A DNA stretch of 64,000 bases from Opitutia bacterium (GCA_003558065.1 PWMU01000188.1:14936-78935), one strand, 5' to 3'. Positions 42,651 through 44,774 are shown, numbered from the stretch's first letter. Numbers and translations: made by a program. The notes: generated by a model from the sequence alone, not told the origin.

Positions 42651-43334
42651 ATGCCAATCAAAACAGGCAAACGCTTAATCACCAGCACCTTTGACAAATA
42701 CCTCCTCAGCCTGGCGCGCGGAATTACCCGTGCGCAGGAAGAGCTTTCCGGCGTTCAGGTCAAACGTCCCGGAGAAGCTCCCCTCTCCTACCACATCCCG
42801 GAGGTCAACTTTGAGCTCAAGCTCGGACTCGAGGTGGATTACGAGGGCCATGAGTCCGACCCCAGCTGGATCCCCCAACTCAAAACCCACGCCCTGAATC
42901 CGGCGAACGCCTCCCTCAATGAATTCACCGCCGAAGCCGCCAGCGTAATCAAGGGACGTTTTGTTTCCGTACCGGCGAACGGCGGGGCGCCGCTGCCCGT
43001 ACTGGAGATCGCTCTGCGCAAGGTAAAAGGCCAGAAGAAAAAGATCCGGGTTGATGCGACGTTGCGGAATTCCCTCGGCGAACCTATTGAAGGAGCCGAG
43101 GTTGAATTCAATGTGGACCGCGACTCCAGCGCCGCTCTGAACCTGGAGGCGGGCATGAAAGAAAAAGATGCTGCGATTCCCGGGAAAACCGACTTCGAAA
43201 ACGCGCTGGACGTCACCGACGAATCCGGCAAAGCCGGAGCCACACTGAACAGGGAAGGCAAAAAGGGCCAAAACATCGTTATCCTTATCTACGCCGAAAA
43301 CGTGACCGAATCCATCATCGTTTCCAATCCCTAG
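42651..43334 (+). CDS. operon gene 8: divergent family member fused to a C-terminal Ig-like (Big-type) domain
   Basis: N-terminal helix FDKYLLSLARGITRAQEELS, strands YHIPEVNFELKLGLEVDY and ASVIKGRFVSVPANG. The Ig-like region follows: IRVDATLRNSLGEPIEGAEVEFNV...VTDESGKAGATLNREGKKGQNIVILIYA. Confidence 0.75.
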   Translation: MPIKTGKRLITSTFDKYLLSLARGITRAQEELSGVQVKRPGEAPLSYHIPEVNFELKLGLEVDYEGHESDPSWIPQLKTHALNPANASLNEFTAEAASVIKGRFVSVPANGGAPLPVLEIALRKVKGQKKKIRVDATLRNSLGEPIEGAEVEFNVDRDSSAALNLEAGMKEKDAAIPGKTDFENALDVTDESGKAGATLNREGKKGQNIVILIYAENVTESIIVSNP

Positions 43335-43352
43335 CATTCCACCGATAATAAA

Positions 43353-44105
43353 ATGCCGCGCAAGATCGCCACACAAATCAACCGGCCACAGGTAAGGGTC
43401 CGCGACCACAGAACGTCCAAAAAGGTCGCCGAAGAGAGCGGCACGGATGTGTCCGCCTCCCAGCTCCGGAAGATCGAGCAGAATGTCCGGAGAAAGCTCC
43501 AGGCCGAAAACGAAAAGAAAATTCGCGCCGAAGTCGAAAAAAGAGAGCAGGCCATAAGGAAACGCGAGGAACGGATCAAGCGGTTGCGGAACCAGAACCG
43601 GGAGCTTGCCAAGAAAAAGGCGGAAAAGGAAAAAAAGGAGGATGAAACCAACCTCATGGATTTGATTGAAGAGGTTGCCGAACAACTGGACTCGGTTCGT
43701 GAACGTTTATCGGACGAAGAGAGCGGATACCAACTGGGCAAAGTATCGTTCAGCTTCAAAGTCCGGCCCAGCTCCGGAGGTTACAACCTCGCCCTTCCTT
43801 CCCGCGAGGAACTCCAAAGCGGCGGCGCCGGACTCAGCGAGTTTCATTTTGACCTGACCCCGAAAGACGCGGGAGACGAGCCTTCGGTGACATCCGTCCC
43901 CGACTTGAGAGGACTCACCGAATCCCTCGCACGTTCCCGCCTCCGGCAAAGCGCCCTCGAACCCGACATTCGCCGTATCGCGGTGGAACCCGGTGAGGGG
44001 AACCACGGAAGAGTGGTTCGCCAGGCCCCGCAACCCGAAACCGAGGTGTCAACGGGCGAAATCGTCACCATTATGATCGGTCAATCCATCGAAGACGACG
44101 AATAA
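43353..44105 (+). CDS. operon gene 9: sigma70-region-4-like HTH + K/E coiled coil + family-like beta core + PASTA domain
   Basis: KKVAEESGTDVSASQLRKIEQNVRRKL resembles the sigma70 r4.2 pattern (..lgvS.erVRqIe.kAlrKL). Coiled coil KIRAEVEKREQAIRKREERIKRLRNQNRELAKKKAEKEKKE. Core LMDLIEEVAEQLDSVRERL...YQLGKVSFSFKV...LSEFHFDLTPK. PASTA-like SVPDLRGLTESLARSRLRQSALEPDI...GRVVRQAPQPETEVSTGEIVTIMIG. Confidence 0.75.
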   Translation: MPRKIATQINRPQVRVRDHRTSKKVAEESGTDVSASQLRKIEQNVRRKLQAENEKKIRAEVEKREQAIRKREERIKRLRNQNRELAKKKAEKEKKEDETNLMDLIEEVAEQLDSVRERLSDEESGYQLGKVSFSFKVRPSSGGYNLALPSREELQSGGAGLSEFHFDLTPKDAGDEPSVTSVPDLRGLTESLARSRLRQSALEPDIRRIAVEPGEGNHGRVVRQAPQPETEVSTGEIVTIMIGQSIEDDE

Positions 44106-44138
44106 GCCGCGAACTTCTTACTTTTTTGAAATACAATC

Positions 44139-44774
44139 ATGAACGCCAAAGAAAAAATTCTTAAAATGGAGCCGCTCTCTTCTCCTGTCTCCGATATGAT
44201 CGCCTCGATCGGGGAAGGGCTGGCCCGAGCCCAGATCGAACTCGACAAAGCCGCGCTGCAAACCATCGAACGCATCTATTATGAACCGGGCGGCGCATCC
44301 GAGGCCCTGCGTGAGATCGGCTATCAACCGACGTGGTACCAGATCCCTGAAATGACCGCCGAATTGAAGATGGCCATGACCATCGAAGGCGAGCGAACCC
44401 CGTCGACCACCCGTCGGAGAGCTTTCGCTCCGCGGATTCTGGGCGCCCCGGTTGACGCGAATTACAGCAACAAATTCAATTACAAGGTCGAAGGCTCCAG
44501 CACGATCAACTTCAAAATTGTCCCCATTCCCCCGCCATCGGCCTCGGAAACCCTCATGCCGGTCGCCGTTCCCGACCTGAAGAAATCATCCGCCGGTGAG
44601 GCCATTGAAAGCCTCAAAGGTCGTGGCCTCACCCATGCGCTCCGAAAAAGCGGATCAAGCAAGGAGGAAAGCGACACCGCCGCAAACCTTAAGAAAGAGG
44701 TCACTTCCCAGGATCCCGAGCCCGGAAGCCGAATCCGACGGGGCAGCACGGTGAGGCTGACCATAAAAAAGTAA
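44139..44774 (+). CDS. operon gene 10: ELGFTP-family paralog 5 fused to a C-terminal PASTA domain
   Basis: SPVSDMIASIGEGLARAQIELD...LREIGYQPTWYQIPEMTAELKMAM...VDANYSNKFNYKVEGSSTINFKIVPIPPPS. PASTA-like region: VAVPDLKKSSAGEAIESLKGRGLT...EVTSQDPEPGSRIRRGSTVRLTI. Confidence 0.8.
   Translation: MNAKEKILKMEPLSSPVSDMIASIGEGLARAQIELDKAALQTIERIYYEPGGASEALREIGYQPTWYQIPEMTAELKMAMTIEGERTPSTTRRRAFAPRILGAPVDANYSNKFNYKVEGSSTINFKIVPIPPPSASETLMPVAVPDLKKSSAGEAIESLKGRGLTHALRKSGSSKEESDTAANLKKEVTSQDPEPGSRIRRGSTVRLTIKK

Follow-up and report, generated by a model that had tools for sequence, protein, structure and literature searches.

PASTA and Ig-like modules on proteins without recognizable export signals, encoded at the end of a conserved ten-gene operon

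The window analyzed here is a 64,000-nucleotide stretch of DNA from an Opitutia bacterium (GCA_003558065.1 PWMU01000188.1:14936-78935), with positions counted from its first letter. Three neighboring open reading frames (ORFs) on the + strand, designated genes 8, 9, and 10, fill positions 42651-44774 and encode proteins that carry PASTA and immunoglobulin (Ig)-like modules. Judged from their sequences, these proteins are the final three subunits of a conserved, leaderless ten-gene system, encoded by a same-strand operon at 37661-44774 whose intergenic gaps measure 2-52 bp. The modules would be free of export signals because their genes belong to this operon, in which six of the ten proteins demonstrably share, by sequence comparison, a previously unannotated core. 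PASTA and OmpA-type domains classically mark the extracytoplasmic side of the cell, and their presence in such a system would point either to an unrecognized exit route for folded wall-binding proteins or to an unrecognized cytoplasmic use of these domains.

Wall-binding modules without export signals

The Pfam PASTA model (PF03793; length 64, curated gathering cut-off 23.2 bits) scores 34.9 bits at residues 181-243 of gene 9 (43893-44081, +; E 1.5e-8, model positions 2-63) and 42.1 bits at residues 142-210 of gene 10 (44562-44768, +; E 8.4e-11, model positions 1-63). All peptides quoted in the initial annotation were found in the translations of the three ORFs, and the two PASTA-like segments noticed there are by these scores genuine PASTA domains. 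The NCBIfam model NF033483 (PknB_PASTA_kin) matches the same stretch of gene 10 (E 1.6e-5), and the closest PDB sequences to the gene 9 domain are PASTA units of PknB (E 6.5e-4) and PonA2. A scan of species-representative genomes identified 290 loci, of which 80 were fetched, and all counts that follow are over 83 loci. PASTA-like domains are present in 71 of these, with two per locus in 46, mostly at the final two positions of the operon, and those of the orthologs likewise score above the Pfam threshold.

Gene 8 (42651-43334, +; 227 aa) comprises a core at about residues 1-115 and an Ig-like module at about residues 118-227 (43002-43331). In the window protein the Big_1 model (PF02369) reaches 21.5 bits against a cut-off of 34.9 and covers model positions 17-47 only, and the gene 8 profile has no match among PDB sequences. 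Orthologs of gene 8 are found in 77 loci; 12 of 24 match Big_1 at E ≤ 0.1 (best E 1.4e-6) and some match BIg21 or Invasin_D3, so that an Ig-like fold is likely in gene 8 as well. The proposed Ig-like module is thus supported at the level of the family, the score of the window protein itself being sub-threshold.

The absence of leaders was assessed by a crude Kyte-Doolittle scan for a transmembrane (TM)-like 19-mer or an N-terminal h-region. Neither was found in any of the ten operon proteins or in two amidase-like proteins encoded downstream, and nearly all orthologs are likewise free of a TM segment or h-region. In PknB and penicillin-binding proteins (PBPs), a TM helix or signal peptide precedes the PASTA domains; none is detected by hydropathy here. 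The original observation that modules of an extracytoplasmic type sit on proteins without recognizable export signals was therefore upheld, and it extends to nearly all of the orthologs.

Gene 9 (43353-44105, +; 250 aa) consists of a short N-terminus, a K/E-rich coiled coil at about residues 30-125, a possible mini-hairpin at about residues 126-172, and the PASTA domain. A helix-turn-helix (HTH) resembling sigma70 region 4.2 had been proposed near its start (residues 25-49; 43425-43499, +), and the string in question, VAEESGTDVSASQLRKIEQNVRRKL, does visually resemble region 4.2 consensus strings. The segment nevertheless fails every model test and is poorly conserved. No Sigma70_r4 (PF04545 / PF08281) or other HTH model of Pfam or NCBIfam matches gene 9 at E ≤ 1, and no sigma factor appears among the PDB phmmer matches at E ≤ 10; with these searches all negative, the HTH was rejected. 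In the closest homolog (P0122) the segment is about 48% identical, compared with 76% for the whole protein, and reads KVPAKRGGEVSAAQRRRIERELRREL, with a Pro falling within the would-be first helix. In the nearest orthologs it lines up with the beginning of the coiled-coil stalk, which is how we interpret it in the window protein.

Because a homolog search with gene 9 alone returned only itself and this one 76% relative, its remaining orthologs were found via synteny. They are longer, with a beta-rich head or two Laminin_G_3 domains ahead of a long coiled coil, and by this comparison the window protein is a shortened version of them; with the Granulosicoccus and Marinibactrum orthologs, conservation is restricted to residues 58-246. 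That gene 9 encodes a wall-sensing DNA-binding regulator, in which a sigma70 region-4-type HTH is joined by a coiled coil to a PASTA sensor, is on this evidence scarcely credible. The unusual combination of coiled coil and PASTA domain, in contrast, stands once the HTH is set aside. As for the placement of the modules C-terminal to a family core, BLAST and hhalign confirm it for genes 8 and 10. For gene 9 the hint of a core is weak: hhalign relates the gene 9 and core families at 7.8% (E 0.0045) and hidden Markov model (HMM) searches for a core were not significant; the protein may contain a degenerate seventh core.

The core family and its conserved operon

The core is common to four small paralogs and to the N-terminal parts of genes 8 and 10. 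The cores match one another by BLAST at E 1e-13 to 1e-56. Gene 10 (44139-44774, +; 211 aa; core at residues 1-139) matches the other paralogs at E 1e-13 to 4e-20 and its positional orthologs at about 1e-36, and the gene 8 family is linked to the core family by hhalign (86.9%, E 4e-6). A core profile searched against a set of 5.8 billion sequences retrieved more than 3,000 proteins, all annotated as "hypothetical" and none with a Pfam domain, and 1,297 clusters (50% identity) at E ≤ 1e-3. The core itself matches no Pfam or NCBIfam model, and its profile matches no PDB sequence. Among 149 core representatives, fusions involve binding modules only, namely PASTA (6), Laminin_G_3 (3), He_PIG, Big_2, and Laminin_G_2. 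In Granulosicoccus antarcticus, an additional core joined to a ComEA-type HHH_3 DNA-binding domain (L005, 14784-15503) lies right after the core + PASTA gene.

Weak Pfam matches to Trypco2 (PF19631) were noted in 3 of the 149 cores (best E 8e-4) and in 2 of 24 core-Ig proteins. When compared by hhalign with a Streptomyces Trypco2 profile, which is of low diversity, the core gave 0.6% and the core-Ig family 11.8% (E 0.0025, over the helix and first strand), and hmmsearch was not significant. Homology to Trypco2 is accordingly not established, and the resemblance was kept as an analogy only.

The order of the ten genes is conserved. ORF clustering recovered the canonical arrangement (L12-like, TPR, core slots U4, U3, U2, and U1, coiled coil, core + Ig, coiled coil + PASTA with or without a head, core + PASTA) in at least 53 of the loci, spanning more than 10 phyla. 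The fetched loci come from Opitutales (the closest, at 65% identity), Balneolales, many Gamma- and Alphaproteobacteria, Acidobacteriota, Gemmatimonadales, Nitrospirota, Nannocystaceae, Chloroflexia, Saprospiraceae, and Latescibacterota. Exact copies of the window genes occur in contigs of two metagenome-assembled genomes (MAGs; GCA_007130315.1 and GCA_007129275.1), and gene-by-gene orthologs of the whole operon in Granulosicoccus antarcticus, Marinibactrum halimedae, and Desulfonema magnum. Each paralog represents a distinct orthologous group, since the best matches between loci fall in the same slot 82-97% of the time. The added modules are also tied to slots: PASTA to positions 9 and 10, Ig-like to position 8, Laminin-G heads to the stalk at position 9, and an OmpA domain (PF00691; E 1.7e-13 in L062) to the hairpin tip of the core at position 3, slot U4, in 41 loci. 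In L062 (4071-5858) and the 40 other loci, the insertion that includes this peptidoglycan-binding domain is about 400 residues long and lies exactly in the tip of the long hairpin. In Desulfonema magnum (L006, 3505-5061) the operon is split, with two ISAzo13-type transposase genes and unrelated genes lying between the L12-like/TPR pair and the genes for the core and PASTA proteins.

No member of the core family was found among 2.9 million IMG/VR contigs or 50,697 phage genomes, and on plasmids the family was found once, on a megaplasmid of Sphaerotilus sulfidivorans (NZ_CP035710.1). The megaplasmid locus (L088, 9001-11431) is a reduced four-gene variant, annotated as hypothetical throughout, in which two genes encode clear cores, one encodes a degenerate core, and one encodes a coiled-coil + mini-hairpin protein; the L12-like, TPR, Ig, and PASTA parts are missing from it. 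The core, L12-like, TPR, and coiled-coil proteins have no PHROG match and are also unmatched in PADLOC-DB 2.0, where, among the operon proteins, only the PASTA region aligns with part of the PD-T4-6 models. Across the 83 loci, no membrane, ATPase, protease, or holin gene is conserved beside the block, membrane candidates being lineage-specific, and no protease family is among the conserved neighbors; there is only a weak trypsin match, upstream in Granulosicoccus.

The first two genes of the operon encode conserved partners of a different kind. Gene 1 (37661-38866, +) is an ORF of 401 aa, called as 386 aa elsewhere, that by itself has weak, sub-threshold matches to Ribosomal_L12 (Pfam) and TIGR00855. 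A profile built from 26 orthologs matches the C-terminal domain (CTD) of L7/L12 in the PDB (1ctf, E 5e-7), with bL12 chains, 1ctf included, aligned at E 5e-7 to 1e-4 over about 70 residues. Orthologs occupy the first operon position in every one of the 73 loci in which they occur. As far as these matches go, the protein resembles L7/L12 at the level of the CTD and is not a ribosomal protein; its several tandem L7/L12-CTD-like domains represent an unusual, non-ribosomal use of the fold. Gene 2 (38879-39466, +; 195 aa) is a small TPR protein with sub-threshold matches to TPR_2, TPR_1, and TPR_14. Its orthologs in L005-L007 match at E 1e-33 to 2e-48 and, in 71 loci, always take the second position.

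The four small core paralogs follow. Slot U4 (39469-40074, +; 201 aa), assigned by alignments and by BLAST to the other cores, has an acidic hairpin-tip loop. Slot U3 (40110-40583, +; 157 aa) has a short tip and a slot concordance of 87%. Slot U2 (40626-41138, +; 170 aa) is the protein modeled by AlphaFold2 (AF2) below, and slot U1 (41167-41724, +; 185 aa; slot concordance 91%) is the most conserved core type, with 50-65% identity across phyla; the concordance of slot D1, occupied by gene 10, is 97%. Between U1 and gene 8 lies an R/E-rich coiled-coil protein (41745-42623, +; 292 aa) that belongs to no Pfam family and matches a 299-aa neighbor in Granulosicoccus (BLAST E 3e-12); in most loci this slot holds a coiled-coil protein.

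Directly downstream of the operon are two leaderless Amidase_2-like proteins of 595 aa (44827-46614, +; phrog_5867 endolysin, E 4e-7) and 537 aa (46696-48309, +; phrog_5867, E 4.5e-10; Amidase_2, E 6.7e-4, sub-threshold). They are paralogs (BLAST E 3e-122, 41-49% identical), each with a C-terminal Amidase_2/endolysin-like domain and a long uncharacterized N-terminal region; the 537-aa protein contains a LysM-like stretch, YTVEQGDLLDHIARDEF. A PDB sequence search with the amidase was empty. Opitutales and Balneolales loci have comparable pairs after the operon, and the orthologs there match Amidase_2. Besides the window, Amidase_2 proteins are encoded directly downstream in L008, L009, L010, L016, and L074, and in L087 together with SH3_3. 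The same position holds a Peptidase_M74 + PG_binding_1 endopeptidase in an Oceanobacter MAG (L014, 14284-15663) and a LodA-like L-lysine epsilon-oxidase in a Nannocystaceae MAG (L040, 9945-11726). We regard the amidases, on their distribution, as lineage-variable accessory genes outside the conserved block, and the 3' end of the operon as what appears to be a variable "cargo or helper" position.

The next ORF (48285-51299, +; 1004 aa; lineage-specific, with about 8 TM-like segments by hydropathy) has no Pfam or PDB match and no homolog in the 83 loci, and its membership in the system is uncertain; its translation contains GxGxxG / GxSxG motifs reminiscent of patatin-like phospholipases. Farther out, the operon is flanked by a 1068-aa protein with a CBM96 carbohydrate-binding module (33878-37084, -) and a 250-aa protein with a PEP-CTERM sorting signal (51609-52361, -), and a gene with a type IV pilin-like N_methyl motif and an SBP_bac_10 domain is found farther downstream on the source contig. 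Promoter and terminator signals were at background level. The AT skew at 40001-46000 is strongly positive (0.19-0.34) and the GC content of the operon (0.56-0.58) is slightly below that of the flanks (0.60-0.63), a combination that fits K/E-rich coding and possibly horizontal acquisition.

Predicted fold and possible modes of action

The core is laid out as an amphipathic N-terminal helix, an amphipathic beta-hairpin of about 27 residues per strand with a variable tip, a Pro-rich motif, and a charged C-terminal helix. The AF2 model of gene 10 (211 aa) had a predicted local distance difference test (pLDDT) score of 57.6 and was too poor to use. For the 170-aa U2 paralog the score was 71.3, with a predicted template modeling (pTM) score of 0.53 and values of 82-94 in the conserved parts. 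This model contains a 31-residue helix (residues 18-48), a small hairpin, a long hairpin (strands 73-99 and 126-151) whose tip is disordered, and, after a PxPxP motif, a helix at the C-terminus (residues 154-169). Along the long hairpin, the family alignment shows strict alternation between a hydrophobic and aromatic face (I82/V84/I86/I88/M90 with V125/A127/Y129/Y133/Y135/A137) and a face rich in Ser and charge (E83/K85/S87/S89/S91 with S126/S128/K132/Q134/S136/E138). By itself, a hairpin of this kind would probably not be stable. In slots U1-U3 the tips are basic and rich in Gly, and they contain a short aromatic or hydrophobic motif.

When the core model was compared with the PDB by Foldseek, nothing significant was found (best E 0.2). 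The top-ranked chains, all non-significant, were the pore-state hairpins of iota Ib, CDTb, lysenin, aerolysin, epsilon toxin, and anthrax protective antigen (PA), together with the ring proteins SpoIIIAG, FliF, and the LP ring. A borderline structural match over the full length (E 1.4e-3, TM-score 0.46) was obtained in BFVD to A0A516MP19, an unnamed 178-aa protein of a viral catalog and the sole hint of a virus-associated relative.

The reading we favor, though tentatively, is that the paralogs may form a hetero-oligomeric beta-barrel of hairpins that is tethered to peptidoglycan and arrives there without Sec. The hairpins of different paralogs would co-assemble side by side into a barrel or ring and the helices would form a collar, a design known from Pepco/Trypco2 barrels and beta-pore-forming toxins. 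The coiled-coil proteins would serve as stalks bearing lectin or Ig heads. Assembly would be assisted or restrained in the cytoplasm by the L7/L12-like protein and the TPR protein, acting as chaperones or assembly factors. The PASTA and OmpA modules, through their predicted binding, would anchor the assembly to peptidoglycan; such a tether would therefore place the device at or beyond the cytoplasmic membrane and imply that it gets there independently of Sec. The barrel might insert itself, or its passage or release might be aided by the peptidoglycan hydrolases that are often encoded directly downstream. It could then perforate the envelope of the producer itself or, once released, act on other cells. 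The stronger form of this proposal, that the operon represents an unrecognized class of Sec-independent envelope machine or toxin, a barrel of up to seven slot-specific hairpin paralogs, conceivably with one of each per ring, that takes its own peptidoglycan anchors and lectin-tipped stalks out of the cell or across it and is held in check by an L12 mimic and a TPR chaperone, seems doubtful at present.

Several observations weigh against the barrel. It derives from a monomer model of moderate confidence, and it finds no help in the uniformly non-significant PDB matches or in the Trypco2 comparisons, which do not establish homology. The hydrophobic face of the hairpin may instead be packed on the helices, giving a soluble two-layer fold. 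With OmpA located at the tip and PASTA at the opposite (helix) end, simple tip-first insertion into a membrane is hard to envisage. The operon conserves no export, holin, or ATPase component, a peptidoglycan hydrolase adjoins only a minority of the loci, and ligand binding by the PASTA and OmpA modules is itself a prediction.

A soluble two-layer fold would lead to a different picture, in which the helices cover the hydrophobic face and the paralogs build a non-pore particle or scaffold, an alpha/beta ring or sheet. Such an assembly could act as a multivalent platform for binding wall, glycan, and DNA, for example a released adhesive or bacteriocin-like particle or a dock for the downstream peptidoglycan hydrolases, and could leave the cell by lysis of a subpopulation in the manner of a type 10 secretion system (T10SS) or lysis cassette. 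The appended modules, PASTA, OmpA, Ig-like, Laminin_G_3, He_PIG, and HHH_3, are all binding ones, and the N- and C-terminal helices of the AF2 model are of sufficient length to cover the hairpin. A particle exposed on all sides would be compatible with an OmpA domain at the tip and a PASTA domain at the base, and the variable downstream genes (amidases, the M74 endopeptidase, and the LodA-like oxidase, with small ORFs of 3-4 TM segments in some loci) also favor this picture. We nevertheless consider this picture unlikely, as there is no conserved holin or lysis cassette, hydrolases are confined to a minority of loci, and the tips of U1-U3 carry the short hydrophobic or aromatic motifs typical of membrane-inserting loops. 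The combination of leaderless proteins with Ig-like or lectin domains, followed by endolysin-like amidases, might suggest derivation from a phage, tailocin, or other virion-like particle, as a remnant or as a module. Since such particles are released by lysis, it is normal for their leaderless proteins to bear decorations of the Ig-like and wall-binding types, and the borderline match to A0A516MP19 and some insignificant "lower collar" structural matches lean the same way. The family is, however, missing from the viral contigs and phage genomes searched, its core, L12-like, TPR, and coiled-coil proteins lack PHROG matches, its flanking genes are housekeeping genes, and the conserved block contains no capsid, portal, terminase, sheath, tube, or integrase gene. 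With neither viral relatives nor hallmark genes, a phage origin is largely refuted and, in our estimate, highly improbable.

The modules could also act without leaving the cell, in a cytoplasmic defense (abortive-infection) complex whose latent, Pepco-like pore kills the infected cell from within. The L7/L12-like protein would then be a decoy or sensor, and muropeptides or peptidoglycan precursors in the cytoplasm would be detected by the PASTA and OmpA modules. The Pepco-like layout, the recurring weak Trypco2 matches, and the slight GC dip over the operon are compatible with this, as is the patchy distribution across phyla, which, with 50-65% identity between phyla, suggests horizontal transfer. 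Conflict systems of the iSTAND type with peptidoglycan-binding effector domains are known (PMC7159879), and the PASTA-like C-terminus matches part of the PADLOC PD-T4-6 models. Those PADLOC matches are limited to the PASTA region, however, and the peptidoglycan-binding domains of iSTAND systems come after a TM segment that is absent here. The operon conserves no protease, NTPase, or other known sensor, it is not obvious what the Ig-like, Laminin-G, and ComEA-type HHH modules would bind in the cytoplasm, and the loci lie outside recognizable defense islands; a defense role is thus quite improbable.

Comparison with known systems

The individual add-on domains of the operon are known already. 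The core family, the fixed multi-paralog operon, and the systematic presence of wall-binding domains on leaderless proteins appear to be undescribed, the function being inferred, and no description of the core family or operon was found in the searchable literature. If the proposal of an envelope machine or toxin is true, the system would offer leaderless proteins a new way of getting to the wall. Cultured, tractable carriers include Halomonas, Amphritea, Neptuniibacter, Granulosicoccus, Marinibactrum, and Saccharophagus.

The PASTA domains belong to the same Pfam family, above the cut-off, as those of PknB-type kinases and class B PBPs. In those proteins they follow a TM helix, lie outside the membrane, and are often in tandem, whereas here a single PASTA domain forms the end of a hairpin or coiled-coil protein that is non-enzymatic and leaderless. 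Most of these proteins are from didermic (two-membrane) phyla, in which PASTA domains are reportedly uncommon. Type 10 secretion and lysis-cassette release, exemplified by Serratia ChiWXYZ and Yersinia Yen-Tc, likewise involve leaderless proteins that act outside the cell and are encoded beside peptidoglycan hydrolases, and several loci of the present system have amidase or endopeptidase genes directly downstream. Unlike those systems, however, it has no conserved holin or spanin and a hydrolase in a minority of loci, and its cargo would be a multi-paralog assembly rather than an enzyme or Tc toxin. The iSTAND ternary conflict systems also use OmpA and PASTA outside classical wall-synthesis proteins, among their peptidoglycan-associating effector domains PEGA, OmpA, PASTA, and Sel1 (PMC7159879). 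There, a TM segment precedes the domains and STAND NTPases are coupled to them; the present system has neither.

Long hairpins are also shared with SpoIIIAG, FliF, and the flagellar LP ring, where they build large beta-barrel rings. OmpA-type wall anchoring is common in ring-forming envelope machines, and the translocators of type III secretion systems (T3SS) have TPR class II chaperones, a small TPR protein being encoded beside oligomerizing subunits. No sequence relationship or significant structural relationship connects the operon to any of these, and the Sec or T3SS export apparatus on which they depend is not encoded here. The beta-pore-forming toxins (aerolysin/epsilon-toxin/lysenin; PA/iota Ib/CDTb) resemble the core proteins in their long amphipathic, Ser/Thr-rich hairpins with a short hydrophobic tip and in the joining of receptor-binding modules to a pore-forming unit. 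Those toxins are Sec-secreted single polypeptides that form homo-oligomers, and beyond the hairpin no common fold and no significant match (best E 0.2) was identified.

The closest working analog is Pepco (Trypco1/Trypco2, PF19631), a group of protease-activated pore effectors that form 9-10-mer beta-barrels; an amphipathic helix lies at the base, the hairpin barrel is hydrophobic on the outside and polar on the inside, and the C-terminal tail is rich in Pro and charged residues (bioRxiv 10.1101/2025.11.14.688446). The core proteins are likewise small and leaderless, with an N-terminal amphipathic helix, a two-faced hairpin, and a Pro- and charge-rich tail. Pepco is a single gene of 117 aa with a protease-sensor partner, whereas the operon has up to seven slot-specific paralogs of 150-600 aa, with far longer hairpins and with wall-binding modules attached. 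It lacks a conserved protease and adds two further conserved partners, the L12-like protein and the TPR protein. Because the profile-profile tests were not significant, we treat Pepco as an analog and not as a demonstrated relative. By that analogy, the predicted layout of a helix and a long hairpin ties the core family to Pepco pores and beta-pore-forming toxins.

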